Sequence record: OZ035800.1
DNA length: 64,000 nucleotides
Source: Felixounavirus LF82P5
Direction: 5' to 3' (one strand)
Position 1 is the stretch's first letter. Each line of letters starts with the position of its first letter. The notes beneath the pieces are model-generated. The model was not told the DNA's origin, did not search any database, and worked only from the letters and a program-made list of their open reading frames with translations. Positions 18,469-54,574 of this stretch are shown piece by piece. The position numbers were made by a program, and so were the translations under genes.

Positions 18469-19515
18469 ATGGAGAAGTACACATTAACAAAACTTCCCGA
18501 TTCAGTTACACATGTTTTTATTGACTCTGACAGCATTGCTTATAAAGGTGCTTGTGTAGTTGAGAAAGCAAAATATAAATACGTCAATAAACTCACAGCA
18601 GAAGAATCTGAACCATTTGACAATGCGAAAGATGCTGCAAGATGGTTAGCAGACCAGAGAATCCTTGTGGAAGAACTTGGCCTGACATTTGATGAAGATG
18701 AATGGGAAAGACAGACTTGGAAAGAAGCTAAGAGTGAAAAAGAAGCTATCATGGCTACTCAACAGGTGCTTCAGGAATGGCTTAAGATTGTTGGTAAAGA
18801 AAGAACTTGGGTAGGTTATTTAACAGAGAAAGGTGTGCATAAACATAAAGACATTAAAGGTCTTGAGCACCAATATCAAGGTAACCGTAAAGATGCTGTC
18901 ACACCAACACACTTAGTCGCTTGTCGTGAATACCTTCTGTCAAGACCAGAGTTCAAACTAATTCTTGATGGATTTGAAGCCGATTCTATCGTTATTGCTA
19001 AAGCTGAAAAGATGGGTAAAAAGGCTGCCTTGATGAGTATTGATAAAGACCTTCGCCAAGCTGAAGGGACTTACTGCATTGATATGACCTATGAAAAGTC
19101 GCCTTTGATTTTCATTGCTGACAACAACGTAGGTGAAATTTGGGATTGCCCAATAAAATCAACACCAAAAGCTAAGAAGACAGTTGGTGTAGGTTTTAAA
19201 TTCCTTTGTTATCAAGCTGTGGCTGGTGACAATGCTGATAATTATTTTGGTTTAAAGGGTGTTGGTAAGGCTACTGTAATGAAAGCCCTTGAAGGTAAAA
19301 ATACTTATAAAGAGTGTCTTGATGCTATCTATGAACTTTATGCTAAGAAAGAGTCATACACTTATGTATCATGGGATGGTCAAACAATTACCAGAACACC
19401 TTTAGAGTTAATGCAGCAACACTTTTTCTTAGCTTATCAGGAAAGAAACAAGAAAGACGATTTCACTTTTGATAAGTATGGGTGGACACCAAATGTTAAC
19501 TCAACAAACTCTTAA
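18469..19515 (+). CDS. 5'-3' exonuclease (T7 gp6 / FEN-like)
   Basis: Motifs SIDKDLRQ and QAVAGDNADNYFGLKGVG match the T7 gene 6 signatures (SCDKDFKT, KGDITDGYSGIAGWG). Confidence 0.7.
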   Translation: MEKYTLTKLPDSVTHVFIDSDSIAYKGACVVEKAKYKYVNKLTAEESEPFDNAKDAARWLADQRILVEELGLTFDEDEWERQTWKEAKSEKEAIMATQQVLQEWLKIVGKERTWVGYLTEKGVHKHKDIKGLEHQYQGNRKDAVTPTHLVACREYLLSRPEFKLILDGFEADSIVIAKAEKMGKKAALMSIDKDLRQAEGTYCIDMTYEKSPLIFIADNNVGEIWDCPIKSTPKAKKTVGVGFKFLCYQAVAGDNADNYFGLKGVGKATVMKALEGKNTYKECLDAIYELYAKKESYTYVSWDGQTITRTPLELMQQHFFLAYQERNKKDDFTFDKYGWTPNVNSTNS

Positions 19516-19993
19516 AGAATACCTGCACTATGACCCCGAAACAGGGGTCTTTACTTGGTTAGTTGGTAGAAGAGGTAAGGCCAAAGCTGGCTCAGTAGCA
19601 GGTCTTAAACACCATAGTGGTTATATCTATATAAAACTCTTCGGAAAAAGATATGCAGCACACAGACTGGCATTCTTGTATATGAAAGGCTACCTCCCAA
19701 AATTTGTTGACCACAAGAATGGTATCAGGCACGACAACTGGTTCGACAATTTGAGAGAGTGTAGCAGGTCAGACAACAACTGCAATGCAGTCAAAAGAAA
19801 AGATAATAAGTCTGGTGTGAAGGGTGTATATTACCACAAGCAAAGAGGTAGATGGGCTGCACAAGTCAAGCATAATAAAGTATGCTACCATCTAGGTTTA
19901 TTTGACTCTATCACTGAGGCTGAATCAGTTGTCAAAAAGAAAAGAGAAGAACTACATAAAGAGTTTTCAAATCACGGAGAAGCTTATGAATGA
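19469..19993 (+). CDS. HNH homing endonuclease with AP2 domain
   Basis: HNH motif VDHKNGIRHDNWFDNLRE...DNNCN; AP2-like GVKGVYYHKQRGRWAAQV; N-terminal YDPETGV motif shared with 9388..9903. Confidence 0.8.
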   Translation: MISMGGHQMLTQQTLKEYLHYDPETGVFTWLVGRRGKAKAGSVAGLKHHSGYIYIKLFGKRYAAHRLAFLYMKGYLPKFVDHKNGIRHDNWFDNLRECSRSDNNCNAVKRKDNKSGVKGVYYHKQRGRWAAQVKHNKVCYHLGLFDSITEAESVVKKKREELHKEFSNHGEAYE

Positions 19994-20487
19994 AGATTAA
20001 AGGATTTGGCAATTGCCCTACCTATGGTCATTGGGTGTCTTTATGTGGGGAAGTTGACCCCACTAAACATTTTGGCTTTGTCTATTTAGTGCACTGTAAG
20101 AAGACTGGACAATATTATATCGGAAAGAAACAGCTTAACAGTGTGACCAAAAGAAAAGTTGCTGGGAAGACTCGGAAGAAGGTAGTCACTAAGGAAAGTG
20201 ATTGGATGACTTATGAGACTTCTTCCGAGTATATTAAAAAAGATATTGAGAGCTTTGGAAAAGAATTTTTTGACTTTTACATTATTCAGACCTACTACAC
20301 AAAAGGTGGCCTAGTCTATGGTGAAGCAAACCTTCAACATAAATTCGATGTAATGACAAAAAGGATTGACTCGAAGCTCAGACTCTTCTACAATGCCAAT
20401 ATTGCAGCAATTAAGTTTATCACTAAAGAAACTTATGAAGATGCTGAAAAAAGAATCCATAAGGTAATGAAAGCAAATTGTGCTTGA
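19990..20487 (+). CDS. possible GIY-YIG-like nuclease
   Basis: FVYLVHCKKTGQYYIGKK fits the G-I-Y...Y-I-G spacing with an Arg about 10 aa later; weak. Confidence 0.35.
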   Translation: MKIKGFGNCPTYGHWVSLCGEVDPTKHFGFVYLVHCKKTGQYYIGKKQLNSVTKRKVAGKTRKKVVTKESDWMTYETSSEYIKKDIESFGKEFFDFYIIQTYYTKGGLVYGEANLQHKFDVMTKRIDSKLRLFYNANIAAIKFITKETYEDAEKRIHKVMKANCA

Positions 20488-20508: not shown

Positions 20509-20739
20509 ATGTTTAACAAAAGCAAAGCTGTGAGTCATGTAGCAAAAGTTGACAGCAAGATTGAAGAACTTGAGCGCATCCTTGCAAATGCTAGAGAGTC
20601 AATAATCAAAGAAGTTGAAGCTGTTGAATCTCAAATGCAGCACCTAATGCTTAAACGTCAAGAGCTACGTGAGCATCTAGAATATATTGAAACACGAGAG
20701 CTAAAAGTTAACAGATTTTTAAGGAGTCCAAATGTTTAA
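20509..20739 (+). CDS. hypothetical coiled-coil protein
   Basis: Track start 20494 is TTG; moved to ATG 20509 with GAGAG Shine-Dalgarno. Confidence 0.45.
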   Translation: MFNKSKAVSHVAKVDSKIEELERILANARESIIKEVEAVESQMQHLMLKRQELREHLEYIETRELKVNRFLRSPNV

Positions 20740-21487
20740 CTCAAGAGAAGCAGTAAAAAACTGGAATCTTCGTTGTGGAAACACTCAAAAGCAACCTTAC
20801 AGTTATGAGTATTGGGAATCTTTAAAATCCCAGTCTCTGTGTATGCTGGAAGAAGCAAAAGAGCTTGTAAAAGCAATTGAAGAGAAAGACCCCATTGAGA
20901 CACTGGATGCTCAGGCAGATTTGCAATATGTTCTTGATGGTCTGATTTATCTGTCACAACATGACCATAACGGTGCTATGAAAGCTGTTTGCCATAATAA
21001 TGACCTGAAGTACACAGATGACTATGAAGAAGCTTTAAAACGTCTTGCAGACATTGAAAAGCGTACTGGTCAAGAGTGTGTTATCAGAATGTCAGTAGTT
21101 GATGGTAAAGAGTGGTATGCGATTGTCCGTGCAGCCGATGGGAAGATTATGAAGCAATCAAATCTCCCTAAAGTACAGCTTGGTGAATACATTGTAGAAC
21201 TTGAAAGCCAAGAACTTTTTGTGGTAGTATCTGAGACATGCGTTATCTGCAAAGGTATTGTAGGTAGCTTAAAGGATTTGGGTGTAGATGGTTTTGTAGA
21301 AGTTAATCCAATTACCTCTAAAGCAGATAAAGATTTCTGTAAAGAGAATGGACTATGGATTGCAGATATTATCTACTATGATGGTGAGCAGTTCCATGTA
21401 ACCTCATACCCGAAACTGAATTATGATGCTAATAACCTGAAGTGTTGGTTAAAAGGGGTTGGTTATAATGGATTCACAGAACATTAA
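20732..21487 (+). CDS. MazG-like nucleotide pyrophosphohydrolase domain protein
   Basis: N-terminal EExxE...E.LD..ADL pattern (LEEAKELVKAIE...ETLDAQADLQYVLDGL). Confidence 0.35.
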   Translation: MFNSREAVKNWNLRCGNTQKQPYSYEYWESLKSQSLCMLEEAKELVKAIEEKDPIETLDAQADLQYVLDGLIYLSQHDHNGAMKAVCHNNDLKYTDDYEEALKRLADIEKRTGQECVIRMSVVDGKEWYAIVRAADGKIMKQSNLPKVQLGEYIVELESQELFVVVSETCVICKGIVGSLKDLGVDGFVEVNPITSKADKDFCKENGLWIADIIYYDGEQFHVTSYPKLNYDANNLKCWLKGVGYNGFTEH

Positions 21488-29469: not shown

Positions 29470-29955
29470 ATGAATTACATGGAGATTCGACCATTTGACA
29501 CAGCTAATGGTGAAGGGGTTCGTGTAAGCCTCTTCGTAGCTGGTTGTAAGCATCACTGTGAAGGTTGCTTTAATAAGGAATCTTGGAAGTTTAATGCTGG
29601 TAAAGAGTTCACTTATGCAAACCTTTATGGCATCATTAAGTTAATGGATGATAATGCCATCAGTGGGCTGTCAATACTTGGTGGAGAACCTCTGGATGAT
29701 AGAAACATTCAAGAGGTTACCAACATATGCAAACGTATTAAAACCGTTTACCCAGAAAAATCTATCTGGCTCTGGACAGGTTTTCAGTTACATGAAAAAA
29801 TTCACCTTGATGTGATGAAATATGTTGACGTGGTGATTGATGGTAAGTATGATTCATCTAAACCAACAGTTAAACCGTATCGTGGTTCAGATAACCAAAA
29901 CCTCTGGAGAAAAGAGTACGGATGGCAAGGTGATTGTCAGTGGAGAGCAGAGTGA
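29470..29955 (+). CDS. nrdG: anaerobic ribonucleotide reductase activating protein (radical SAM)
   Basis: 161 aa; cysteine cluster CKHHCEGC near the N-terminus; downstream of nrdD. Confidence 0.8.
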   Translation: MNYMEIRPFDTANGEGVRVSLFVAGCKHHCEGCFNKESWKFNAGKEFTYANLYGIIKLMDDNAISGLSILGGEPLDDRNIQEVTNICKRIKTVYPEKSIWLWTGFQLHEKIHLDVMKYVDVVIDGKYDSSKPTVKPYRGSDNQNLWRKEYGWQGDCQWRAE

Positions 29956-30051
29956 TTATTCTGGCAAATGGACTAAGGTATAACTCCAATTGGTATCACT
30001 GAAGAAGAACTTCATAAGTTCTGTATTAAACTTTAATGAGAGAGACTAAAA

Positions 30052-30318
30052 ATGGGAATTTTAGGTAATATGAAAGCTGGATTCTTGAAGGCACTGGAAA
30101 AAGCAGCAGCAATTGTTTCTATGACTGGAAAGCAGGTCGGTGTAGATGCTTCAGCGGTTGCACAGGTTCTTGCAAGCCAAATTGAACAGCAGCCTTACAT
30201 CTACGTAGGACGTGGTAAAGGTGGTAAGAAACAAGCCCACCGCCAATCTGGTGCAGCAGCTATTAAACGAGCAGCTAAGAAAGCTCGTAACCGTAAACGT
30301 AACAAGAAGGTTAAATAA
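30052..30318 (+). CDS. hypothetical protein with basic C-terminus
   Basis: 88 aa ending in a Lys/Arg-rich tail. Confidence 0.4.
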   Translation: MGILGNMKAGFLKALEKAAAIVSMTGKQVGVDASAVAQVLASQIEQQPYIYVGRGKGGKKQAHRQSGAAAIKRAAKKARNRKRNKKVK

Positions 30319-30320
30319 CC

Positions 30321-30641
30321 ATGAGCAAAGTTTATAACACTCGTAAATTACAGATTTTCGTACTGTGCCAGTTTATGGCTAAAGAATACAACTTCTACTA
30401 TTGTGGTACAGGTTTTATTAGCGATGATGATGGCTCATACCTCCCATTCAAAGAAGCTGTAAAACTCTTTAATGAAGAGAAAAGCTCTAAGAAAGATATT
30501 GAAAAGGTTAAGCTAACCTACAGCAAGAAAGATAAGAAGATTATCTGCCTAGATAACTTTGTGAAAGTTACTAGAGAAGCAAAAGAGTTTATGGATGAGA
30601 GTGATATTTCATTCACAAGCATCTTGAAAGTAGCTCAGTAA
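30321..30641 (+). CDS. hypothetical protein
   Basis: 106-aa ORF. Confidence 0.4.
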   Translation: MSKVYNTRKLQIFVLCQFMAKEYNFYYCGTGFISDDDGSYLPFKEAVKLFNEEKSSKKDIEKVKLTYSKKDKKIICLDNFVKVTREAKEFMDESDISFTSILKVAQ

Positions 30642-30692
30642 ACAGATACTATAAGGGGACTGTAAAGGTTCCCTTTTTATTTTGGAGGTAAA

Positions 30693-31208
30693 ATGTATCT
30701 GTCAAACCTGAAACGTTCGGTTGCAATGTCAGTTCTAAGACTCAGCTTTGATGAGCGTCAAGAGTTTATAGACTCCCACAAATATGACCCTTCAAATTCT
30801 AATCACATGGTTCTTTGGAATCGTGATAACTTCCGTGAAAGAGCACTTGTCCGTTATTACCCACACTACACAATAGATAACCTGTATGAATGGTGTGTTG
30901 TGAAGAACACCATTGCAACACTGAACAATCTTTGCAGGTATACGGGTAAGCAAACATTTACATTAGGTCATCACAAACCTGTTACAAAAGGTGGTGAACA
31001 TCACTGTGCAAACTGGTTTATCCAAACTAAAACTGATAACCAGAAGCAAGGAGATAGCCTCCTAAGTATCCCTAAGATGACCTATGAAGAGCAAGAGAAA
31101 TATATCAAAAATAATATGCCAGATGTGCTTGACAACAACTATACAGATTTGGCAATATCTCTCCTGTTGAAGTTCGAGACAGTTTATAGGGCAACTTATA
31201 ATGGCTAA
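30693..31208 (+). CDS. HNH-like endonuclease
   Basis: TLGHHKPVTKGGEHHCANWFIQTKTDNQKQGD resembles HNH (His-His...Asn...Asn) nuclease motifs. Confidence 0.45.
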   Translation: MYLSNLKRSVAMSVLRLSFDERQEFIDSHKYDPSNSNHMVLWNRDNFRERALVRYYPHYTIDNLYEWCVVKNTIATLNNLCRYTGKQTFTLGHHKPVTKGGEHHCANWFIQTKTDNQKQGDSLLSIPKMTYEEQEKYIKNNMPDVLDNNYTDLAISLLLKFETVYRATYNG

Positions 31209-31479
31209 AGAAAAGTGGGAGATTTTACCATTAGTCAGTGAAGGAGGTAATGGTTGTGAAATGTACATGATACGTGGTCATGTTCCAGAGCCAATTGCAC
31301 TTGAGATGGTAAACAACTTTACAGATGGTTCTTACAAAGACTTAGGCGAACCAACTGTCAAGCAACAATGGGTTAAACCTGTACCAGACAGCACAGGTAA
31401 CTGTAGTGTACTTTATCACGTTGTAGACCCTGCAAAATGCAAATCTGCAATGGCAGTAACAAACGTAACTTTTGATTGA
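31201..31479 (+). CDS. hypothetical protein
   Basis: 92-aa ORF. Confidence 0.4.
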   Translation: MAKEKWEILPLVSEGGNGCEMYMIRGHVPEPIALEMVNNFTDGSYKDLGEPTVKQQWVKPVPDSTGNCSVLYHVVDPAKCKSAMAVTNVTFD

Positions 31480-31490
31480 GAGAGAAAACT

Positions 31491-32372
31491 ATGAAAACAT
31501 CTATCCGTGTTACAGTTCATTCACCAACTAAAGGAACTCATGAAGAAGAGTTTAACATCATCCAATTTCCTTCTGGTGAGATTGGTGGACACTTTTCTCC
31601 AGAGTTTGTTGATTTCACTGCTTATGCAGCATCATCCATCAACAATGTGATTATGATTGTAAAAGGTTATGATAAGGATACATTGTTTGCTGTGGCACTT
31701 GCTAAAGAAGCAATTGATGATTTAATTCCTCATGATTATGCTTTAAAGACTGTCATCTTTTACTACTTACCAAATGCACGTTATGACCGTCACATGTTTA
31801 AAGGCGACGCAGCAGCTTTAAAGGTTTTTGCTAAACAGGTAAATGCAATGGGATTTGGTGCAGTCTGTGCAGTTGACCCTCACAGTTACGTTCCAGATAA
31901 CCTGTTTAACTGCTTCCAGAGTATTCCTCAAAAGGAGATTGCAGTTCACTACGCAAATGACCCACTGATTGATTACTTAGTAGCCCCAGATGCAGGTGCT
32001 GCTAAGAAGATTGCAGAGACTGCTAAAGAGGTGGATAAACCATACATCACAATGTCTAAGGTGCGTAACCTTAAGACTGGTGAAATTACTGGTATGCGAA
32101 TCCTTGACGATGTTGATTTGACAGATAAAACTGTCATGATTCTGGATGATATTTGTGATGGAGGTCGAACCTTCATAGAAGCAGCCAAACATCTTCGTGA
32201 AGCAGGTGCAAAACGTGTGGAACTCTATGTAACTCATGGTATTTTCTCTAAAGATGTTGAAAACTTGCTTGACAATGGTATTGACCATATCTACACTACA
32301 AACTCTTTAGGGGAAGCTAAAGACCGTGGCTTAACACATTATAGCCAAGTTACTGTAGCAAACCTTGATTAA
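31491..32372 (+). CDS. prs: ribose-phosphate pyrophosphokinase (PRPP synthetase)
   Basis: PRTase-type motif MILDDICDGGRT and VDPHS-type element; start moved to ATG with GAGAGAG Shine-Dalgarno. Confidence 0.65.
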   Translation: MKTSIRVTVHSPTKGTHEEEFNIIQFPSGEIGGHFSPEFVDFTAYAASSINNVIMIVKGYDKDTLFAVALAKEAIDDLIPHDYALKTVIFYYLPNARYDRHMFKGDAAALKVFAKQVNAMGFGAVCAVDPHSYVPDNLFNCFQSIPQKEIAVHYANDPLIDYLVAPDAGAAKKIAETAKEVDKPYITMSKVRNLKTGEITGMRILDDVDLTDKTVMILDDICDGGRTFIEAAKHLREAGAKRVELYVTHGIFSKDVENLLDNGIDHIYTTNSLGEAKDRGLTHYSQVTVANLD

Positions 32373-32381
32373 AACTTTATA

Positions 32382-32402
32382 GGGGCTTCCAAGCCCCATT
32401 TT
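32382..32402 (+). terminator. hairpin (weak terminator)
   Basis: GGGGCTT-CC-AAGCCCC hairpin followed by ATTTTG. Confidence 0.35.
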
Positions 32403-32417
32403 GAGAGAGATTAAAAG

Positions 32418-34199
32418 ATGACTAAATCACTTTATGCAGTACCAGCAGGTTTAAATGCAGATGCTTACAAATCTGGTCATGTTTACCAGTATCCTAGCGC
32501 AACAGAGTACTTGATGTTCAATCTGACACCACGTAGCGACAAATGGTTTAACAGCCCCTTAGCAATTGACGGTGTAGTGGCTTTTGGTATTCAACGTTTT
32601 GTTAAAGATTACTTGATAGACCACTGGAATGCCACTTTCTTTGAACGTGATAAAAAAGAAGCAATTGACGAAATCTTAGAAGTCATGAATGGTGTTCTGG
32701 GCAAAGATGCTATCGGTCGAGAGCATTGGGAAGCACTCCACGATTTAGGTTATCTACCAGTTGAAGTATATGCTGTAGAAGAAGGTACAGTTGTCCCGAT
32801 GCGTGTCCCAATGATTGTCTTCCAGAACACTGTTTCAGGCTTCCATTGGGTAGCAGGTTATCTGGAAGATGCTTTCTCTGCTGAGATTTGGAAGGCTTGC
32901 ACCATTGCGACTATTGCATTGCACTACAAACGTATATGTAAGAAGTGGGCTGACCTTACTTGTGACAATGACCTACATTTACCTTATCAGTGTCACGACT
33001 TTGCTATGCGTGGTATGTCCGGCTTTACTGATGACGCATTTAACGCTGTAGGTCACTTAACCAGCTTTAAAGGAACCGATAGCTTCCCTGCTGTATACAC
33101 GGCTAAACGCATCTATGGACAGTCTTACCCAATCTCTGATATTGGTAGTTCTGTACCAGCCACTGAACACTCTGTAATGTGTGCAAACATTGCTTGGGAA
33201 GGTGGTAATGAGTTGATTGAAGAAGAAAGACGCTTTAAAGGTGAGTTACAAACCTTCCGTCGTTTCTTAACAGAAACTTACCCAACAGGTATTGCAAGCA
33301 TTGTTTCAGATACTTATAACTTCTGGAGAACTGTGTCAGAAATCTTACCAGCACTTCGTAAAGAAATTATGGAACGTGATGGCAAACTGGTAATTCGCCC
33401 TGACTCTGGAGACCCTGTACATATTGTCACAGGTTATAAAGCAATCCACTTAGAATGTGCTAAGAAGGCTTATTACGAGCACCTAAGCAAGCTGGAAGCC
33501 AGTGACACAATGTTGAATGCTGTTCTGAACATGAAGCTTGAGAACATCAACTATGGTATTGCTGGATGGCTACTGTCAGAAGGCTACGAGATGGTTGTTG
33601 ACAGAGAAGACTTTGAAGTTGCTGATACAGTGATGTTGAAAAATGCTTATATGGTTGGTTCTGCAAACGTTGTAACACGTCCTGTAGCTGAGATTGATGG
33701 AGCTATTAAGACACTGTACAACATCTTTGGGGGAACTATTAACTCTAAAGGCTTTAAAGTACTGGATGAGCATATTGGACTTATTTATGGCGACTCTATC
33801 ACGTTGGAACGTGCAAATGAAATACTGAAGCGTTTGTATGAAATGGGTTTTGCAAGCTCTAACGTAGTGTTTGGTGTAGGTTCTTACACTTACCAGTACA
33901 TGACTCGTGACACCTTTGCATTTGCTGTCAAAGCAACCCTTGCAAGCATTGGTGGTAAAGAGATTATGCTTGCAAAAGACCCTAAAACAGATAGTGGTGT
34001 TAAGAAGTCTGCTTTTGGTGGTGTAGCACCTATGTGGGATGGTGAAAATCTGAAAGCTGTAGATGGCTATGGGTTCCAGAGCTTTGCAGATGCACTTGAA
34101 CATCCAGCTTGTGCTTTACGTCTAGTCTTTAGTGACTCTGAGCAGTTCGGCTACACAACTCTTGGTGATATTCGAAATAATATTGACAAGCAGCTTTAA
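32418..34199 (+). CDS. nadV: nicotinamide/nicotinate phosphoribosyltransferase family protein (NadV-like)
   Basis: N-terminal DAYKSGH motif typical of the NAPRTase/NAMPT family; sits next to prs. Confidence 0.6.
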   Translation: MTKSLYAVPAGLNADAYKSGHVYQYPSATEYLMFNLTPRSDKWFNSPLAIDGVVAFGIQRFVKDYLIDHWNATFFERDKKEAIDEILEVMNGVLGKDAIGREHWEALHDLGYLPVEVYAVEEGTVVPMRVPMIVFQNTVSGFHWVAGYLEDAFSAEIWKACTIATIALHYKRICKKWADLTCDNDLHLPYQCHDFAMRGMSGFTDDAFNAVGHLTSFKGTDSFPAVYTAKRIYGQSYPISDIGSSVPATEHSVMCANIAWEGGNELIEEERRFKGELQTFRRFLTETYPTGIASIVSDTYNFWRTVSEILPALRKEIMERDGKLVIRPDSGDPVHIVTGYKAIHLECAKKAYYEHLSKLEASDTMLNAVLNMKLENINYGIAGWLLSEGYEMVVDREDFEVADTVMLKNAYMVGSANVVTRPVAEIDGAIKTLYNIFGGTINSKGFKVLDEHIGLIYGDSITLERANEILKRLYEMGFASSNVVFGVGSYTYQYMTRDTFAFAVKATLASIGGKEIMLAKDPKTDSGVKKSAFGGVAPMWDGENLKAVDGYGFQSFADALEHPACALRLVFSDSEQFGYTTLGDIRNNIDKQL

Positions 34200-34213
34200 A
34201 AGTATATGATAAG

Positions 34214-34235
34214 AGGCTCCTACGGGAGCCTTTTT
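34214..34235 (+). terminator. rho-independent terminator
   Basis: AGGCTCC-TACG-GGAGCCT hairpin followed by a T run. Confidence 0.6.
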
Positions 34236-34252
34236 AATTTCTGGAGAAAACT

Positions 34253-34588
34253 ATGAAAATCAAAGAGATGAACATCAACATTGTCTTAGAAGAACGTTGG
34301 GAGAACATCAAGAAGCCTGAAGATGGCCATAAGTTTCTTAACAAAATTTTAGTAGCAGCTAAAGAAGAACTGACTGGCAAGGTCGCAGCAGCAATTACAA
34401 TAAAGGTCTGTGTAAAAGGTCTTCCAGATAATCACCAATTTGCACTTGACGAGTTTAAAGAAAGCTTCTACAATCCAAACAAACAGATGCTTGAAAGTAA
34501 CTTTGCAGTATCTACAAGTATCGTCCATGACAGAAGCTTTATCCTTTACAAGAATATGAGAGGTGAGTCATGCAAGCATATTGGATAG
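34253..34588 (+). CDS. hypothetical protein
   Basis: 111-aa ORF. Confidence 0.45.
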   Translation: MKIKEMNINIVLEERWENIKKPEDGHKFLNKILVAAKEELTGKVAAAITIKVCVKGLPDNHQFALDEFKESFYNPNKQMLESNFAVSTSIVHDRSFILYKNMRGESCKHIG

Positions 34589-34746
34589 AAATTTTACTGT
34601 CACTTGGTGGCGTAGCAGTGTTTGTTTACCTTCTTTGTAAGTACTATGCAGAGCACAAAAAATGTGACTACTGTAATGGGGAAGGTTATACAAGAGCAGG
34701 TTGTTGCCCTATGTGTGGTGGTTCTGGTAAAATGTTTAACAAGTAA
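34570..34746 (+). CDS. small membrane-anchored zinc-ribbon protein
   Basis: 58-codon ORF (below track cutoff): hydrophobic helix then CDYCNGEGY...CPMCGGSG. Confidence 0.3.
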   Translation: MQAYWIEILLSLGGVAVFVYLLCKYYAEHKKCDYCNGEGYTRAGCCPMCGGSGKMFNK

Positions 34747-34774
34747 TTTAACAGTAAACTAAGAGGAAAGTATT

Positions 34775-37141
34775 ATGCGCATGGTAAACGACCACGCAGA
34801 AGTGATTAAGAGTTCAACTTCTTTAGAGACGTCTCAAGCACAGATTACAATGACACCTGAAATGTTCAGCCTTTTGAGTTCTGGTGTATATACCTTTAAA
34901 GAAAGGGCAGTGATTCGTGAACTGTCATGTAACGCAGTAGATGCTCAGAAAGAGGCTGGAAAAGAGAACATCCCGTTCCATGTGCATTTGCCTACTCGTT
35001 TTGAGCCTTACTTTGAAGTTCGTGATTTTGGAACTGGATTAACTCATGACAAAGTTATGAGCTTGTACCTAAACTACGGGGCTTCTACAAAGAATGACTC
35101 CAATGACTACATTGGTGCAATGGGTATCGGCTCAAAGTCACCATTTGCAATTGCTCAGTCATTCACAGTATCTAGCTATGTTGATGGTGTTGTTAATAAG
35201 TACTCTGTTTACCTTGAGAATGGTATCCCTCAAGTAACTAAGCTGACAACTAACCCAACAAAAGAACCTAATGGTTTAGCTGTACGTGTGGCAGTTGCTG
35301 ACCACCGTATCTCAAAGTTCTTTGAAGAGGCTGGTCACGTATACTCATACTTTGCTGTAAAACCAGAGAGTAATGTGGAGTATAATGATATATTAGCAGA
35401 TATGGATGTGATTGCTCGTGAAGAAGGTGTCTATGATGCCATGACTCATAAGCATAGCTGGCGTTCAAGCAGCAATAGAACAGAGTTTAACGTGGTTATG
35501 GGTAATATTGCCTACCCAGTTAATATGGAGGCATTACTTGGTGATGATTTCTTCAAAGTATTACCAGAATTTTTCCGCAGGAGCATAGACCTTGTAAACA
35601 TCTACATGCCTATTGGTTCAGTTGCTATTGCAGCTTCTCGTGAAGCATTGCAGATGAATGACACGACAAAAAATGTTATCATCGAGGCTACTAAAAAGAT
35701 AACTGAAGCAATTACAAAGGATGTTATCAAGAAAGTTAATAGTCAACCTACACTCATGGATGCTGCACAGGCTTATGCTGAGTTACGCTTAAACTCACGA
35801 GAGATGTTTAATGTTGTGTGTCCAAAGCTAGAGTGGGGAGGTGTTAAGCTTGATTCTCTGGAAGAAGAATTACTAAACATTCGTCGTGGAATTATCTACG
35901 CAGAAGACGGCTCAGTCATTTATGAACGTGACGGCAAAGGCAATATTAAGGTTGATAGGAACGGGAACAATATTCCTAAAGTAGATTATCTTTATGACCC
36001 AGTTGCTTATGTCAAATTCAACTCTTTAGAGAGTAAGATTCGTGCAACATCGCTTTCCTACACTCAAGAGGCAAGCATGTTCAATATCTTTGGCGCAATG
36101 CGTAAAAGCCAAATTGAACAGTTTTTGTTTGTTATAAATGACCGTCGCAATAAAAACGGTACTGAGAAGACTGTAGGACGCAATCAAATCTTGCGTGGTG
36201 CATGTCGAGACTATGCCAGTGAGTCTAGTCTGTTTCACAGATACAATGGTATTGTATTTGTATTCTCGACTGAAAAAGAGCTAGATGACTTAGTCAATCT
36301 ACACAAACTTGATAAAAGCTTGTTAAAGATTGTGAAGATGTCTGAGAAGGAACACCATTATCAGCGTAAAGAAGCTGTAAGAGGTGTTGTAAAACTCTGG
36401 AAAGCTGTTCCAGCAGAAGGTGTAGCTTCCTATAAAGAGGTTTCAGAGGACTTTGATACAATTGAAGAGCCTCAGCTTTACATTAAGGCAGTTGGTGATA
36501 CAGTTGATGGTAGATGTTTTTGCTCATCTCCAGAAGATGTAGCTAAGTCAGTTGCTAATGTTACAGGTAAGACAGTCTATGTTTTCCGAAAAGCAAATTG
36601 GAAAAAGATACCAGAAGATTGGATTGAAGTAGATGAGAAACTCTTGAACGACAGCTTAACTGATGTTCACTGGATTAACCATAACAGATATATGACGCGT
36701 ATCTATATGAATGGTGTCCTTGACCTTACAAGCAGTTGGATTATTGCCAGAAACTTTACGTTTAATAACAGGAAGATTTCTCGCGGGTATTGTTATTCAA
36801 GGGATACTATTAAGACAATCTTCTTAGAAGGGAATGAAGATGCTGTTGAGGCAATGTTTGGTAAGATTCAGTATGTGGCTGCACCGTTTGCATACACTTA
36901 CACTATCAGTGTTCTTCAGGATTTGAAGTCATGCCTTGATAATGACACAAAACTGTACAAAAAGATTAAGAAAGCAGGTGACCGCATGGTTATCAAGCTG
37001 ACAAACTATCTTTCAAAAAGAAAACAAGAAAACTTCTTGCTTTCACACTTAGATTGGAATAAAGTATCACCTATCGAAGTGAGTAAGTTTTTAGGCTTTG
37101 ATGTGAAGTGTGTTCCAGAAGGGACTACAATTTACGATTAA
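34775..37141 (+). CDS. rIIA: rIIA-like protein with GHKL-type ATPase domain
   Basis: 788 aa; Bergerat-fold motifs N-box ELSCNAVDA, G1 DFGTGL, G2 GAMGIGSKS at the N-terminus; followed by an rIIB-sized gene. Confidence 0.55.
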   Translation: MRMVNDHAEVIKSSTSLETSQAQITMTPEMFSLLSSGVYTFKERAVIRELSCNAVDAQKEAGKENIPFHVHLPTRFEPYFEVRDFGTGLTHDKVMSLYLNYGASTKNDSNDYIGAMGIGSKSPFAIAQSFTVSSYVDGVVNKYSVYLENGIPQVTKLTTNPTKEPNGLAVRVAVADHRISKFFEEAGHVYSYFAVKPESNVEYNDILADMDVIAREEGVYDAMTHKHSWRSSSNRTEFNVVMGNIAYPVNMEALLGDDFFKVLPEFFRRSIDLVNIYMPIGSVAIAASREALQMNDTTKNVIIEATKKITEAITKDVIKKVNSQPTLMDAAQAYAELRLNSREMFNVVCPKLEWGGVKLDSLEEELLNIRRGIIYAEDGSVIYERDGKGNIKVDRNGNNIPKVDYLYDPVAYVKFNSLESKIRATSLSYTQEASMFNIFGAMRKSQIEQFLFVINDRRNKNGTEKTVGRNQILRGACRDYASESSLFHRYNGIVFVFSTEKELDDLVNLHKLDKSLLKIVKMSEKEHHYQRKEAVRGVVKLWKAVPAEGVASYKEVSEDFDTIEEPQLYIKAVGDTVDGRCFCSSPEDVAKSVANVTGKTVYVFRKANWKKIPEDWIEVDEKLLNDSLTDVHWINHNRYMTRIYMNGVLDLTSSWIIARNFTFNNRKISRGYCYSRDTIKTIFLEGNEDAVEAMFGKIQYVAAPFAYTYTISVLQDLKSCLDNDTKLYKKIKKAGDRMVIKLTNYLSKRKQENFLLSHLDWNKVSPIEVSKFLGFDVKCVPEGTTIYD

Positions 37142-37220: not shown

Positions 37221-38330
37221 ATGACTACTAAAACTAAAGCACAGATTGACGCAGAAATTTACAAACTGGTTAAAGAAGGTAAGCTGACCAAAACAGCTAT
37301 TGCACAGAAATTTAACACTTCAACCCGTTCAGTTGGTCGTGCTGTAGAGCGTCATGAAGCAACCTTAAAAGGGAAGAAGAAGGTGACTTCTACACCAGCT
37401 ACGAAGACTTTGAAGCAAGTTGCTAAGACTTTTAAAAAGAAAGCTGGCAAACCAGTTGAAAAGGTCGTTAAAGACGCTGTACAGAAAGCTCCAGTAAATA
37501 AACTGCACGAAGCTATGCAGAAAGATGACAAGATTGAGTACATGATTACTGGTGATTCTGTAATTATGACTTATGGTTCAGAATCTGAAATTGTTGAGTC
37601 TACTCATCCGAACTATCAAGAGATTGTAGTTCATGTTGTGAAAGGTGAGTTCAAGAAAGCATTTGAACTGATGAACATTCGTAAGTCTATCGAAAACTTC
37701 ACTCAGGGTGCTATCACAATCAAAGGCGACAAGCTATTCTACGGTGCTGTTGAGATGCGTTCTACTCTGGTTGACCGTATTCTTCACATGATGAAAACTG
37801 GCGATAAAGGTTTTGAACGACTTGTAATGTTCTTCGAAAAACTGATGGAAAACCCATCTAAAGATTCTGTAGAACAACTTTGGGGATTTGTATCTCACCT
37901 TGATGTTGAAATTGATGAAGAAGGCTACATCATTGGTTGGAAGAAAGTCTCTACTCGTGAAGGCAAGCTGGTTGACTCTCACACCTACAAAGTGCCTAAT
38001 GATTTGGGTAACATTGTAGAAATGCCACGTTGGATGGTTGATAATAACCGTAACGTAACTTGCTCTCAAGGTCTTCATGTTGGTGCTTGGGATTATGTTC
38101 GTTGCTTCTCAGGTGATACAATCCTGAAGGTTCGCGTACATCCACGAGATGTTGTATCTGTTCCAACTGATTACAACGATATGAAGATGCGTTCCTCTCG
38201 TTATGAAGTTGCAGCAATCGTTGATAATCAACGTAAAGTGCTGGAAGCATGGGACGGTAAGACTGAAGCTTTGCATGTCATCGTTGGCACTGCTGGTGAA
38301 CTCATCTCTCAACGTAAACGTGAAATCTAA
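37221..38330 (+). CDS. rIIB: rIIB-like protein
   Basis: 369 aa directly downstream of the rIIA-like gene; N-terminal HTH-like segment and Lys-rich linker; assignment by context. Confidence 0.45.
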   Translation: MTTKTKAQIDAEIYKLVKEGKLTKTAIAQKFNTSTRSVGRAVERHEATLKGKKKVTSTPATKTLKQVAKTFKKKAGKPVEKVVKDAVQKAPVNKLHEAMQKDDKIEYMITGDSVIMTYGSESEIVESTHPNYQEIVVHVVKGEFKKAFELMNIRKSIENFTQGAITIKGDKLFYGAVEMRSTLVDRILHMMKTGDKGFERLVMFFEKLMENPSKDSVEQLWGFVSHLDVEIDEEGYIIGWKKVSTREGKLVDSHTYKVPNDLGNIVEMPRWMVDNNRNVTCSQGLHVGAWDYVRCFSGDTILKVRVHPRDVVSVPTDYNDMKMRSSRYEVAAIVDNQRKVLEAWDGKTEALHVIVGTAGELISQRKREI

Positions 38331-41680: not shown

Positions 41681-42466
41681 ATGGGTATTGTAAAAATCAT
41701 CAATGGTGATATCTTTGCTGCATTTGATAAAGGTAAGTTTGACATCATTGGTCATGGTTGTAACTGCATGAACCTAATGGGCGCAGGTATCGCTGACAAG
41801 ATTTCTAAACTTTACCCAAAAGCATATGAGACCGATACAGAAGTTTATCTCTATGCAGGTGGTATAGGTCACAAACCCTGTGAGAATTTACTAGGTAATT
41901 TCTCTGTAGCACGCTTAAAACAAGGTCGTATAGCTAACCTTTACACTCAGCTTAAGACTGGTAAAGATGCCCGATACAGTGCTTTAGAGTCATCTTTGAA
42001 ACAGCTTAACAGATACTGTGAAGTTAATCAGTTGAAGAAAGTTGGTTTACCTATGATTGGTGCAGGTATCGGTGGACTTGACCCTCAAGCCATCACAGTT
42101 ATCATCAATCAGGTGATGAAGAGTGTAGATGTTTATCTGTATGTCTATGAAGGCGAGATGTACCACAAGTTACGCTCAGGTTGGAAGAACTACTGTGAAC
42201 CAGAATACTTTGCAGGTGTAGCAGTGTTCACAGATAACGCAGTTACCCTCTTCAGACGAAGAAAAGGTAAGATACATCAAAGTAACCCTCCGGTTGAAAA
42301 GATGTCTCTAAGTAACGCTCTAGTTACCCACCTGTCAAAGAGCAATCACAGAATTGCTGTAACATTTGGTAGTGATGCAGAAGCTTATATCTATGCAAGA
42401 ACTGATGAGGATATCGAGGCAATCTTCTCTTCACCAGAAGTTACCTTCTTAGACGCAAAGAACTAA
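41681..42466 (+). CDS. macro-domain protein (putative ADP-ribose-binding/hydrolase)
   Basis: N-terminal GDI...DII.HGCNCMNLMGAGIA and GLPMIGAGIGGL resemble macro-domain signatures (GDIT...VNAAN.LLGGGGV; FPAISTGVYG). Confidence 0.45.
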   Translation: MGIVKIINGDIFAAFDKGKFDIIGHGCNCMNLMGAGIADKISKLYPKAYETDTEVYLYAGGIGHKPCENLLGNFSVARLKQGRIANLYTQLKTGKDARYSALESSLKQLNRYCEVNQLKKVGLPMIGAGIGGLDPQAITVIINQVMKSVDVYLYVYEGEMYHKLRSGWKNYCEPEYFAGVAVFTDNAVTLFRRRKGKIHQSNPPVEKMSLSNALVTHLSKSNHRIAVTFGSDAEAYIYARTDEDIEAIFSSPEVTFLDAKN

Positions 42467-52976: not shown

Positions 52977-53441
52977 TTACTTTGGGTATACACTGTCAAG
53001 ATAAATGTCAGCTTCCATTCTACGTCTGTTTTTCAGGCCGTTTGAAGTGACCTTCTTACCTTTGACTGTAACCTTGTTCCACCACTGCATAGCTTCTGCA
53101 CAACCGACCTTATTACCAGCATTGTGGCGCTTGATAAATGTGGAATCCTGCATAGCTGTGATACCGATGTTGTATGTTTCACTTACAAGTGCATCAAACT
53201 CGTTCTGAGAAGTTGGAACCTTGATGGCTTTATTCACTGCTGCAACGAATTTTTCAACATCTGCAAGAAGATACTGTTCAGCTTGTTCAGCAGTAATTTT
53301 CATACCCATCTTAACAGGTTTTCCGTCAATACGGATTGTTCCATAACCGATTGTTGGGATTCCGGCAGAGTCTTCGTAAGCCTCTAACTTCAGACCTTCA
53401 AAGAACTTAATAGCCTCTAAACCTTTTCTTGAGAGTTGCAT
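52977..53441 (-). CDS. endolysin, T4-lysozyme-like (GH24)
   Basis: 154 aa; GLKLEAYEDSAGIPTIGYG contains the Glu-8 aa-Asp-5 aa-Thr catalytic arrangement of T4 lysozyme. Confidence 0.7.
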   Translation of the reverse strand: MQLSRKGLEAIKFFEGLKLEAYEDSAGIPTIGYGTIRIDGKPVKMGMKITAEQAEQYLLADVEKFVAAVNKAIKVPTSQNEFDALVSETYNIGITAMQDSTFIKRHNAGNKVGCAEAMQWWNKVTVKGKKVTSNGLKNRRRMEADIYLDSVYPK

Positions 53442-54574
53442 TATGCCTCCCCTGCTGGATTAACTGTAACTGTTGCTGCGTTAGATGTTACAGAGCCACC
53501 TGCACCAGTAACTACACAGGTGTAGCTTCCTGAATCAGCAGCGGTTGCACCTTCTTTGGTGTAAGTTGCAGTAGTTGCATCGAGGATGTCTTCCTCACCT
53601 TTCTTCCACTGGTAACTTGTTGCACCTGTTGCCACAACATTCAGCGTTAAGGTATCACCTTCAGTGATTCCTTGATTGGTTGGCTGTTGAGTGATTACTG
53701 GAAGTGCGTTCACAGTTACTACAGCAGCATTAGATTCCACTGCACCACCTGCACCTGTTACAACGCAAGTGTATGAACCTGCATCTGCTGGCAGAGCACC
53801 AGACTTGCTATAGGTGGCATCTGTAGCCGAAGGAATGTCAGAGCCATCTTTCTTCCACTGATAACCTGTTGCACCTGTTGCAGTCACTTCCAAGTTGATG
53901 TTTCCACCCTCATTGATAGTCTGGCTAGAAGGTTGTTGTGTAATCACAGGTAGTGCGTTCACAGTCACTGTTGCTGCATCTGAGGTAACACTTGTTCCAC
54001 CCTCTCCAGATACAACACAAGTATAAGAACCAGCATCAGAAGGTGCTACAGACTGTTTTGTGTAGGTTGCAGATGTGGCGCTAGTGATATCCTCACCATC
54101 CTTTTTCCATTGATATCCAGTGGCATTAGTTGCAATAATGCTTAGGGTAAGTGTACCACCTTCATTTACTGTTTGATTGGTTGGTTGCTGAGTAATTGAT
54201 GGTGGCTTGATAGCGTCCTTCAACTTAGCATTCAACATTGAGAATGGTTTAACTCTTGCCAGCCATTCACAATAAACTGTATCAACGTCTTTACCATTGA
54301 TAATTGCATATTGTAAGTCCATGAAGAAGTCAGAAGTTCTCATTTGAGCACCAACGCTATAAAGCAACTCATCACTAAATGGAACTTTGTAGTCTGGTTT
54401 GTAGTCAAACTTCTCAACTTCTGCGATATCAGCTTCAGGCCAATATGAGCTATAGGTGAGTGGTAAAATAGCCTCTTGATATGTTCTAAAATCATATCTC
54501 TTACCAGCCTTTACATTTGCAATGAAGCCCTTCACAAACTCTTTGAAGTCTGGGTAAGTCTTTGCTTTAATCAT
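53441..54574 (-). CDS. protein with three tandem Ig-like domains
   Basis: N-terminal roughly 130-aa domain plus three repeats of about 80 aa (ITQQP...YQWKKDG...AGSYTCVV...VTVN). Confidence 0.55.
   Translation of the reverse strand: MIKAKTYPDFKEFVKGFIANVKAGKRYDFRTYQEAILPLTYSSYWPEADIAEVEKFDYKPDYKVPFSDELLYSVGAQMRTSDFFMDLQYAIINGKDVDTVYCEWLARVKPFSMLNAKLKDAIKPPSITQQPTNQTVNEGGTLTLSIIATNATGYQWKKDGEDITSATSATYTKQSVAPSDAGSYTCVVSGEGGTSVTSDAATVTVNALPVITQQPSSQTINEGGNINLEVTATGATGYQWKKDGSDIPSATDATYSKSGALPADAGSYTCVVTGAGGAVESNAAVVTVNALPVITQQPTNQGITEGDTLTLNVVATGATSYQWKKGEEDILDATTATYTKEGATAADSGSYTCVVTGAGGSVTSNAATVTVNPAGEA
53460..54200. repeat. tandem DNA repeats (three units of about 250 bp) encoding the Ig-like domains
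   Basis: Repeated blocks on the plus strand such as CACCTGCACCAGTAACTACACAGGTGTAGCTTCCTG / CACCTGCACCTGTTACAACGCAAGTGTATGAACCTG. Confidence 0.5.

Follow-up and report, generated by a model that had tools for sequence, protein, structure and literature searches.

The closest described system is NARP1 (NAD+ reconstitution pathway 1) of Escherichia phage JohannRWettstein (Bas63), encoded by bas63_0079 and bas63_0080. [quoted passage not shown] In another study, deletion of g79 or g80 lowered plating on Sir2-HerA by 10^4-10^6, and complementation restored it (bioRxiv 10.1101/2024.10.10.617714). The evidence for Bas63 is thus from genetics and infected cells, and the enzymology in vitro is from the SpbetaL1 and ICP1 homologues. 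[quoted passage not shown] According to the literature, no less than 4% of sequenced phages carry NARP1, and 97% of the genes in the Adps clade are next to a Namat gene.

Several residues of these enzymes have described roles. In ICP1 Adps, the K185A substitution abolished ADPR-PP formation, and roles were described for D212, D213, D216 and the PP loop (PMC13586617). In SpbetaL1 Namat, roles were described for D13, Y15 and the catalytic histidine (PMC12774641), and R306A/G led to loss of activity (bioRxiv 10.1101/2024.02.11.579819). Selectivity is attributed to a clamp. Its helix motif (SCH) has the published consensus GSX-phi-X-phi-X-phi-TRD, in which the third and seventh positions are aromatic, and in the published description of Bas63 Namat the position in the clamp loop (SCL) is Lys/Tyr, with the next residue stacking on the adenine. 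A variant operon, NARP1-AP, and its Adpp from Vibrio phage Gary have also been described (bioRxiv 10.64898/2026.01.28.702374).

We analysed a window of 64,000 nucleotides from Felixounavirus LF82P5 (OZ035800.1), in which an adjacent gene pair had been read from its motifs as a PRPP synthetase and a NadV-like phosphoribosyltransferase making PRPP and then NMN. The analysis covers the gene structure, the orthology and synteny with Bas63, the conservation of residues for catalysis and specificity, and fold prediction. With a probability of about 0.93, the locus is a NARP1 counter-defence operon, its activities being inferred from orthologues and homologues.

Organization of the locus

The ORF list contains both genes of the pair on the (+) strand (Table 1). 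The window DNA is that of a Felixounavirus, with 98.8% identity to LF82P5, and 257 phage records match it. The longest ORF of adps spans 31476..32372 (+) and encodes 298 aa from a TTG codon. The ATG at 31491 is preceded by GAGAGAA, is the start annotated in Bas63 as well, and gives 293 aa. The interval of the original prediction, 31491-34199, runs exactly from this first ATG to the stop codon of namat. A GAGAGAG motif is also located upstream of namat.

Table 1. Features of the adps-namat locus, in window coordinates.
Feature	Position	Strand	Basis
Shine-Dalgarno-like GAGAGAA 5' of the adps ATG	31480..31486	+	read directly
adps, ADP-ribose pyrophosphate synthetase (PRPS-like), 293 aa	31491..32372	+	ORF, phrog_619, Bas63_0079 alignment
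Codons 1-180 of adps, diverged from Bas63 as a mosaic patch	31491..32030	+	DNA identity, dS
Adps Lys190, equivalent of catalytic Lys185 of ICP1 Adps	32058..32060	+	alignment
DDICDGGRT, Adps residues 219-227: putative acceptor-ribose aspartates D219, D220, D223 and PP loop	32145..32171	+	alignment; roles from PMC13586617
Stem-loop GGGGCU-UCCA-AGCCCC then UUUU, between adps and namat	32382..32402	+	
namat, nicotinamide ADP-ribose transferase (NAMPT-like), 593 aa	32418..34199	+	ORF, Bas63_0080 alignment, AF2 model
DAYKSGH, Namat residues 15-21: D15, Y17, putative nicotinamide binding, supplied to the partner protomer's site	32460..32480	+	mapped to SpbetaL1 D13, Y15
Selectivity-clamp loop (SCL), PRSDKWFNSPLAI, with K42-W43	32529..32567	+	mapped to SpbetaL1 R40
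His251 in ATEHS, conserved catalytic histidine of the NAMPT core	33168..33170	+	invariant in alignment
Namat insertion 1, residues about 258-278, helical, length-variable in relatives	33189..33251	+	alignments, model
RPDSG: R327, D329, ribose-binding catalytic residues	33396..33410	+	mapped to SpbetaL1 R306, D308
Namat insertion 2, residues 340-427, lineage-specific alpha/beta subdomain	33435..33698	+	alignments, model
Selectivity-clamp helix motif (SCH) GSYTYQYMTRD, residues 488-498	33879..33911	+	Namat consensus match
Terminator-like hairpin and T-run, directly 3' of namat	34211..34240	+	10-bp stem, 5 GC pairs, TTTTTAATTT tail

The two genes are separated by a 45-nt spacer that holds a stem-loop (region MFE of -12.8 kcal/mol; z=-2.2). 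This element might act as a weak attenuator or in RNA stability. The operon is bounded by flanking terminators at 30653 and 34234, and no Rfam match at E<=0.1 was present in 29900-35000. The antisense ORFs at 33576-34103, 31977-32288 and 31973-32188 had no PHROG hits and were treated as mechanical.

Profile scores place both proteins in their families far beyond chance. Adps matches PF00156, PF14572 and phrog_619 (E=4.7e-97), and Namat matches PF04095 (E=6.8e-35), NF006629 (469 bits against a cut-off of 405) and phrog_448 (E=3.6e-202). Among the Prs models, however, Adps passes the cut-off of the broad subfamily model TIGR01251 alone (123.6 bits versus 113). The NCBIfam Prs equivalog models are all far under their cut-offs, the best being NF002095 with 103.6 bits versus 296, and the Pfam profile search gave no match of Adps to PF13793, the N-terminal domain of Prs. 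In public records, the pair is labelled "ribose-phosphate pyrophosphokinase" and "nicotinamide phosphoribosyltransferase".

Conserved residues and alleles of Adps

Residues of Adps were mapped by alignment with the genome-derived ICP1 ORF228 sequence and E. coli Prs. R87, H121, D161, K185, D212, D213 and D216 of ICP1 Adps correspond to the same residue types in the window, namely R97, H131, D167, K190, D219, D220 and D223, and the equivalent of C215 is also kept. The PP loop reads CDGGRTF in the window, CDGAASF in ICP1 and IDTGGTL in E. coli Prs, and is therefore Adps-like. F18 and F92, which contact the adenine in ICP1 Adps, align with H17 and M102 (F103 is adjacent), in a poorly aligned region of proteins with 29% identity. 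The canonical C-terminal α11-α12 module of PRPS is absent: a gap of 17 columns lies opposite the C-terminal segment of E. coli Prs. Thus, the profile searches and alignments proposed as a check of the original prediction did find the catalytic residues, but in an Adps without several hallmarks of canonical Prs.

The two parts of adps differ in their relation to Bas63. The 5' part shows 67-80% DNA identity to Bas63, compared with 93-97% in the flanks. The N-terminal 180 residues are 68% identical (dS=1.8; dN/dS=0.13), whereas the C-terminal 113 residues are 95% identical. A second adps allele class is also observed, and relatives have matches that start at position 69 or 291 of the query. The dN/dS of 0.13 with saturated dS ruled out diversifying selection in the divergent half. 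These values point instead to an old adps allele exchanged by recombination; judging from the sequence comparison, the 5' part is an old alternative allele that recombines within Felixounaviruses. Purifying selection is strong on both genes, with dN/dS of 0.03 for namat and 0.13-0.07 for adps.

Catalytic core and selectivity clamp of Namat

The catalytic core of Namat is intact: D15, Y17, F195, R198, D221, A248, H251, R327, D329, G458, D459 and R497 are conserved. The catalytic role of His251 also agrees with what is established for NAMPT. The motifs on which the original prediction was based, DDICDGGRT and DAYKSGH, are indeed present in the first and the second protein, respectively. Of the 20 published ligand contacts of Namat, 16 are identical in the window, and the remaining four are compatibly replaced (S190A, A362S, F392Y, and R40K with W43 adjacent). 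The AF2 model has a pLDDT of 93.5, and in the structure comparison it most resembles SpbetaL1 Namat (9w5x/9w5w), with a TM of 0.95 on the target length.

Both elements of the clamp are found in the window. In the SCL, K42-W43 aligns with R40-V41 of SpbetaL1, and the loop sequence is the same as in Bas63. The adenine-stacking residue from this loop is Arg in some Namats and the residue after Lys/Tyr in others; the window would have the Lys-type arrangement, of which Bas63 is the published example. The SCH agrees with the Namat consensus, with aromatic side chains at both of its positions 3 and 7. In contrast, true Nampts have no aromatic clamp at this position, as seen in GAQTYQRNTRD of HdNadV and GGALLQKVDRD of Xcc Nampt.

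Insertions in Namat

Namat consists of 593 aa, as against 465-500 aa for the profiles and relatives, so that the observation of about 100 aa of excess length for a NAMPT was correct (about 95-100 aa). Compared with the crystal-structure sequence of SpbetaL1 Namat, the extra residues are at 46-49 (4 aa), 258-278 (about 15 aa), 340-427 (about 77-88 aa) and 563-569 (7 aa). A terminal domain, an intein and a split gene were ruled out as the origin of the extra length, as the additional residues are all internal. The main insertion, with about 88 aa, accounts for most of the excess and is well under the usual size of an intein. Interruption of the gene was suspected because the N- and C-terminal halves have separate PHROG families and relatives have an HNH endonuclease. 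However, phiWec172 carries its HNH gene as a free-standing unit between adps and an intact namat, and the HNH insertion of relatives is missing from the spacer in the window.

Insertion 1 overlaps model helices 251-262 and 268-287, and this region has 12 aa in short forms and 26-50 aa in long forms. Insertion 2 is present in Bas63, absent in SpbetaL1 Namat, HdNadV and human NAMPT, and confined to Ounavirinae-like phages. Its pLDDT is 92-97 in the full model, and the segment folded alone gave a pLDDT of 87.9 and a pTM of 0.77; it is therefore predicted to be an autonomously folding α/β subdomain. Structure comparison detected no fold relatives of it. The extra domain that had been suspected is thus borne out as a predicted folded subdomain of about 88 aa, although the additional sequence is distributed over internal insertions and is not terminal. 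Insertion 2 is under purifying selection (dN/dS of 0.085). It could dock Adps, so that the hydrolysis-prone intermediate ADPR-PP is handed over directly, or it could regulate Namat or shield it from a host factor.

Proposed reactions and alternative pathways

A host NADase effector (e.g. SIR2-HerA/Nezha, type I Thoeris, DSR1/2 or SEFIR) would cleave NAD+ into ADP-ribose and nicotinamide. Adps, a repurposed PRPP-synthetase fold, would then transfer the β-γ pyrophosphate of ATP to the 1'' hydroxyl group of ADP-ribose, giving ADPR-pyrophosphate. In Namat, a repurposed NAMPT fold, nicotinamide would displace the pyrophosphate of ADPR-PP, giving NAD+ in one step; this would proceed without PRPP and without an NMN adenylyltransferase. 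Both reactions and the counter-defence phenotype are taken from published work on orthologues and homologues, and by analogy the window enzymes, including Adps with its non-Bas63 N-terminal allele, probably act in the same way.

An extension of NARP1 by a third, unlinked gene seems possible, but improbable. A Poa1p-like Macro phosphatase encoded at 41681-42466 might convert ADPR-1''-phosphate to ADPR and so protect against aRES-type defence. In a pairwise alignment (E=2e-13), residues 3-154 of this protein are 27% identical to the characterised Adpp of Vibrio phage Gary over the full 158 aa of the latter, and the protein matches phrog_335, annotated "phosphatase" (E=5.5e-113), and Pfam Macro above the cut-off. 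However, about 7.5 kb and about 10 genes separate it from namat, which places it outside the operon, and no Macro-domain Adpp gene was found in the operon as delimited by its terminators (30653 and 34234). The protein has a C-terminal extension of 105 aa, and its family comprises 2849 phage records, including T4-like phages without known NARP1. Furthermore, the supplementary files of the NARP1-AP study, including the table of operon-associated Macro proteins, contain no Escherichia or Salmonella phages (bioRxiv 10.64898/2026.01.28.702374). A dispersed NARP1-AP acting against aRES through this putative Adpp-like protein is therefore a tentative proposal from sequence; it is an alternative to the likewise doubtful idea that insertion 2 is a functional module and not a neutral decoration.

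The chemistry of the original prediction fares considerably worse. It corresponds to the literal annotation, in which a PRPP synthetase and a NadV-type transferase make NMN and the host NadR or PncC routes lead on to NAD+. The labels in public records and the passing of the broad thresholds (TIGR01251 and NF006629, as described above) agree with it, and Namat homologues still form NMN from PRPP in vitro if ADPR-PP is absent (bioRxiv 10.1101/2024.02.11.579819). But this model was experimentally rejected for the orthologous Bas63 operon, and the window pair combines a Namat bearing the ADPR-PP selectivity clamp with an Adps that has neither the signature of the Prs N-terminal domain nor a DTxGT loop nor the Prs C-terminal helices. 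The literal annotation is thus very unlikely. Since the homologues retain this activity, some NMN synthesis by the window Namat may nevertheless occur alongside NAD+ formation.

Less probable still is a NARP2-like route, known in about 1% of phages and exemplified by Vibrio phage KVP40, in which a NAMPT-like enzyme makes NMN and a phage NMN adenylyltransferase finishes NAD+: the NAMPT catalytic core of Namat would suit it, but NARP2 Nampts are a separate clade from phages without Adps in the literature, adps here adjoins a namat with an SCH motif of the Namat type, and a scan of 40 further ORFs of at least 150 aa detected no NMN adenylyltransferase or nucleotidyltransferase domain in the window, which covers all but about 23 of the approximately 87 kb of the genome.

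NARP1 thus remains the preferred reading, and the original prediction as a whole is partly supported. Its assignment of the pair to NAD+ supply agrees with the NARP1 orthologues in Bas63, and its link to NAD-depleting defence agrees with the SIR2-HerA sensitivity of Bas63 without them; the proposed route through PRPP and NMN has to be given up. Because the pair is NARP1 and not a PRPP-to-NMN salvage pathway, the finding is real but already explained: NARP1 has been described, and the window, as a further copy of the operon in which the pathway was discovered, adds no new biology. Viruses have in NARP1 a general response to NAD+-depleting immunity, and this locus is a cautionary case in which annotation labels and the reading of motifs predict the wrong substrates and products. 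Three modest leads are undiscussed in the accessible literature, i.e. the conserved insertion subdomain in the Namat of Ounavirinae, the two anciently diverged alleles for the N-terminus of Adps, and the unlinked Adpp-like Macro protein.

Comparison with known systems

The window is most similar to Bas63 (MZ501086), a phage of the same genus: gene order and neighbours are shared, and the DNA is collinear at 93-97% identity. Adps is identical to Bas63_0079 in 230 of 293 positions (78%), and Namat to Bas63_0080 in 585 of 593 (99%), both without gaps. The protein lengths (293 and 593 aa), both Namat insertions and both clamp elements are common to the two phages. The differences are an extra small gene in Bas63, bas63_0081 (about 350 bp), directly 3' of namat, about 157 bp of additional sequence upstream near nrdG, and the anciently diverged allele of the N-terminal 180 residues of Adps.

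SpbetaL1 Namat (PDB 9W5W/9W5X; 38% identity) and ICP1 Adps (NrsA; PMC13586617; 29% identity) have folds, catalytic residues including the catalytic Lys, the SCH motif and the PP-loop type in common with the window proteins. Compared with SpbetaL1, the window Namat has the subdomain of about 88 aa and the helical insertion of about 15 aa in addition, and K42-W43 instead of R40 in the SCL. In the alignment, the aromatic adenine contacts of ICP1 Adps fall opposite non-aromatic residues of the window Adps, in the poorly aligned region described above.

E. coli Prs and the Nampt/NadV enzymes (HdNadV, Xcc Nampt, human NAMPT and the NARP2 Nampt of KVP40) belong to the same two superfamilies. The core chemistry is shared: a pyrophosphoryl group of ATP is transferred to the C1 hydroxyl of a ribose, and nicotinamide then displaces the pyrophosphate. 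In the literature, NARP1 differs in that the acceptor is ADP-ribose, not ribose-5-phosphate, and the product is NAD+, not NMN. Correspondingly, the window Adps has DDICDGGRT where E. coli Prs has DDMIDTGGT, and is without the C-terminal helices and the PF13793 match; the window Namat differs from true Nampts by the aromatic residues of its clamp motif.

Finally, NARP1-AP of Vibrio phage Gary, with the operon order Adps-Adpp-Namat, resembles the window in its Adps and Namat core and in the presence of an Adpp-family Macro protein in the genome. It differs in that the window Macro gene is located about 7.5 kb outside the operon and encodes a protein about 100 aa longer.

Gene pair and orthology with phage Bas63

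The ORF listing and the protein sequences placed a PRPP-synthetase-like gene (adps) and a NAMPT-like gene (namat) exactly where the original prediction had them, together with both of its motifs: DDICDGGRT is residues 219-227 of the first protein, Adps, and DAYKSGH residues 15-21 of the second, Namat. In profile searches, the first protein fell into the PRPP-synthetase superfamily and the second into the NAMPT superfamily, both with highly significant scores. The region was 98.8% identical to the Felixounavirus LF82P5 record and matched 257 phage records, nearly all of them Felixounavirus, with Escherichia, Salmonella, Shigella and Citrobacter as hosts. Public annotation labels the products "ribose-phosphate pyrophosphokinase" and "nicotinamide phosphoribosyltransferase".

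Coordinates of the gene pair and of other features of the window
Feature	Position	Strand	Remarks
Homing-endonuclease-like gene	9388-9903	-	
Homing-endonuclease-like gene	19469-19993	+	
Homing-endonuclease-like gene	19990-20487	+	
MazG-like nucleotide pyrophosphohydrolase	20732-21487	+	directly upstream of nrd cluster; phrog_2144, E=1e-100; Pfam PRA-PH
Terminator-like hairpin, upstream	30653-30675		
Small gene	30693-31208	+	171 aa
Small gene	31201-31479	+	92 aa; phrog_4726
adps ORF	31476-32372	+	ORF listing; TTG at 31476 overlaps stop codon of upstream gene
adps from ATG	31491	+	GAGAGAA ahead of ATG; 293 aa; equals annotated start in Bas63 orthologue
namat ORF	32418-34199	+	ORF listing; 593 aa
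Terminator-like hairpin	34211-34234		directly after namat
rIIA/rIIB orthologues	34775-37141, 37221-38330	+	Bas63 g84/g85
Macro-domain protein	41681-42466	+	261 aa; PF01661; phrog_335 'phosphatase'; ~7.5 kb downstream of namat
Phage lysozyme gene	52977-53441		
Immunoglobulin-like protein	53441-54574	-	377 aa; three tandem domains; adjoins lysozyme gene

Genes 79 and 80 of Bas63 (MZ501086) have exactly the same lengths as adps and namat. Ungapped comparison gave 585/593 identical residues for Namat and 230/293 for Adps. The neighbours are also common to both phages: nrdG and small ORFs upstream, and small ORFs followed by rIIA/rIIB downstream. Over 8.5 kb, the DNA of the two phages aligns collinearly and is 93-97% identical except in three places. 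Within 31393-31992 identity falls to 67-80%, and two short segments occur in Bas63 only. Bas63 (L004) carries ~157 bp extra after nrdG (bas63_0074 region; window ~29974) and ~350 bp extra directly past the namat terminator (bas63_0081, hypothetical; window ~34246). Because of the latter difference, phages fjerdesal and typing phage 1 match in two pieces.

The corresponding two-gene operon of the BASEL phage Bas63 (JohannRWettstein), likewise a Felixounavirus, was the starting point of Osterman et al. (bioRxiv 10.1101/2024.02.11.579819). Synthesis of PRPP and then NMN, as in the original prediction, was also those authors' initial assumption, made from Pfam annotations. In the same study, a Bas63 deletion mutant became sensitive to NAD+-depleting SIR2-HerA, protection did not depend on PncC and NadR, with which the host converts NMN to NAD, and ADPR-pyrophosphate (ADPR-PP) appeared as a new metabolite in infected cells. 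The purified first enzyme of SpbetaL1 pyrophosphorylated ADP-ribose and was named Adps; in a canonical Prs-type control reaction it yielded nothing measurable. The second enzyme, Namat, formed NAD+ from ADPR-PP and nicotinamide, favouring ADPR-PP over PRPP. This pathway, NARP1 (NAD+ reconstitution pathway 1), overcomes type I Thoeris, DSR1, DSR2, SIR2-HerA and SEFIR (Osterman et al.). In independent genome-wide Bas63 knockouts, loss of g79 or g80 lowered plating on Sir2-HerA by 10^4-10^6, and complementation restored it (bioRxiv 10.1101/2024.10.10.617714).

Sequence features bearing on the specificity of Namat and Adps

SpbetaL1 Namat was solved with NAD+ by Lan et al. (PMC12774641), who described a "selectivity clamp" that separates Namat from Nampt. 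One part is a helix motif, GSX-phi-X-phi-X-phi-TRD, whose positions 3 and 7 are aromatic; the other, a variable loop, gives one more stacking residue. The helix reads GSYTYQYMTRD in the window Namat, whereas the solved true Nampts have GAQTYQRNTRD (HdNadV) and GGALLQKVDRD (Xcc). The loop carries K42-W43 in place of R40 of SpbetaL1, in agreement with the published account of Bas63 (PMC12774641). Of the 20 published ligand-contact residues of SpbetaL1 Namat, 16 are identical in the window protein and four compatibly substituted (S190A, A362S, F392Y, and R40K with W43 adjacent); the catalytic His251 is kept. The AlphaFold2 model, which is of high confidence (pLDDT 93.5, pTM 0.91), best matched the Namat structures 9w5x and 9w5w in the PDB, with a TM of 0.95 on target length.

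Namat-type proteins of 495-496 aa with the motif GS[FY]TYQYNTRD, and Adps-like proteins of 283-286 aa, are also encoded on chromosomal contigs of Klebsiella, Cronobacter, Phytobacter, Kosakonia and Superficieibacter (e.g. P0072, P0085, P0197, P0224). This agrees with the report by Lan et al. of NARP1 homologues in bacteria.

The window Adps was aligned with Bas63 Adps, ICP1 Adps (ORF228), whose structure was reported by Liu et al. (PMC13586617), and E. coli Prs. The catalytic Lys190 and the acceptor-site residues R97, H131, D167, D219, D220 and D223 are kept. The PP loop, CDGGRTF, is of the Adps type (CDGAASF in ICP1), in contrast to IDTGGTL of E. coli Prs, and the C-terminal helices of canonical Prs are lacking. 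For the aromatic adenine contacts of ICP1 Adps, F18 and F92, the alignment shows no clear conservation. Profile searches gave no match between this protein and the N-terminal domain family of Prs, and its scores were far under the cut-offs of all Prs equivalog models. Only the broad TIGR01251 passed, narrowly, which explains the public Prs annotation.

As a side activity, Namat may make NMN from host PRPP, since Namat homologues do so in vitro. Two other models are disfavoured: a literal Prs and NadV pair, and a NARP2-like route in which a Nampt is combined with a phage NMN adenylyltransferase. Against both stand the experiments on Bas63, the clamp motif, the adjacency of adps to namat, and the lack of an NMN adenylyltransferase domain in the 40 other ORFs of at least 150 aa within the 64-kb window. 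The link to NAD in the original prediction holds; its chemistry was rejected experimentally for the Bas63 operon and does not fit the clamp motif.

Extra length of Namat

The excess of about 100 aa noted originally is real: Namat has 593 aa, whereas the profiles that match it span 465-500 positions and the solved structures 480-500 aa. Compared with SpbetaL1 Namat it carries four insertions, the large one being residues 340-427. In the full model this segment is a beta-alpha-alpha-alpha-beta-beta-alpha-beta unit with pLDDT 92-97. Because it still folds when predicted alone (pLDDT 87.9, pTM 0.77), it is described as an autonomous subdomain that interrupts the barrel after the RPDSG strand, ahead of the helix that follows. 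All long-form homologues from phage contigs of ~84-92 kb have the insert, even those with only 46% identity overall. Its sequence has diverged faster than the core: it is 20-37% identical where whole proteins are 46-60% identical. Across the Namat clade, insertions recur in this loop, a hotspot whose length ranges from 13 to 96 aa and which in other lineages is filled by unrelated sequences. The term "insertion" is absent from the Namat structure paper (PMC12774641). Between the window and Bas63, dN/dS of the insert is 0.085, indicating purifying selection. The Bas63 insert is of equal length and 98% identical, so NARP1 can work in vivo with the insert present.

Allele mosaic of adps

In codons 1-180 of adps, 30% of the nucleotides are not those of Bas63 (dS 1.8, dN/dS 0.13), whereas codons 181-293 and the whole of namat are nearly identical. 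By protein search, Adps of Felixounaviruses falls into two allele classes: that of the window, with 791 sequences clustered at 97%, and that of Bas63, at 78-81%. Matches of several relatives start only at query position 69 or 291. The 5' half of adps is an old allele, kept under purifying selection and exchanged in mosaic fashion; rapid diversification is rejected.

Operon context and neighbouring genes

The two small genes, adps and namat lie in this order between the terminator-like hairpins, and the small genes apparently form one transcription unit with adps. Within the adps-namat spacer, UUUU follows a short hairpin rich in GC. In some relatives the spacer contains a free-standing HNH homing endonuclease: about nine of the Felixounavirus relatives listed have a ~490-bp HNH gene in the 45-nt spacer (phiWec172, L007:1506-1997). 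It is missing from the window spacer (32373-32417) and from Bas63. There were no Rfam matches around the locus, and antisense ORFs inside the genes had no family support.

The 171-aa protein shares 89% identity with Bas63_0077, reported in the PhageMaP study to counter retron Ec67 with a 10-fold effect and there called GIY-YIG; in PHROGs, the only match of the 171-aa protein is weak and HNH-like. Bas63 g84/g85 counter the QatABCD defence (PhageMaP study). With rIIA/rIIB, g77 and NARP1, this stretch is rich in counter-defence genes. Elsewhere in the window, the homing-endonuclease-like genes, two encoding HNH_3 and AP2-domain proteins and one a SegE-like GIY-YIG protein, lie among DNA-metabolism genes.

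Adpp, an ADPR-1''-phosphate phosphatase, turns NARP1 into NARP1-AP against the aRES defence (bioRxiv 10.64898/2026.01.28.702374). The Macro-domain protein could, judging from homology, be an unlinked component of NARP1-AP. Over its first ~155 residues (3-154) it shows homology to the characterised Adpp from Vibrio phage Gary, with 27% identity and E=2e-13; the C-terminal extension of ~105 aa is unmatched. This is only a lead, given that the gene lies outside the operon and belongs to a very widespread family (2849 phage records, including T4-like phages). It joins the Namat insertion subdomain and the Adps allele mosaic as the remaining leads. The locus itself is one more instance of the prototypic NARP1 operon.
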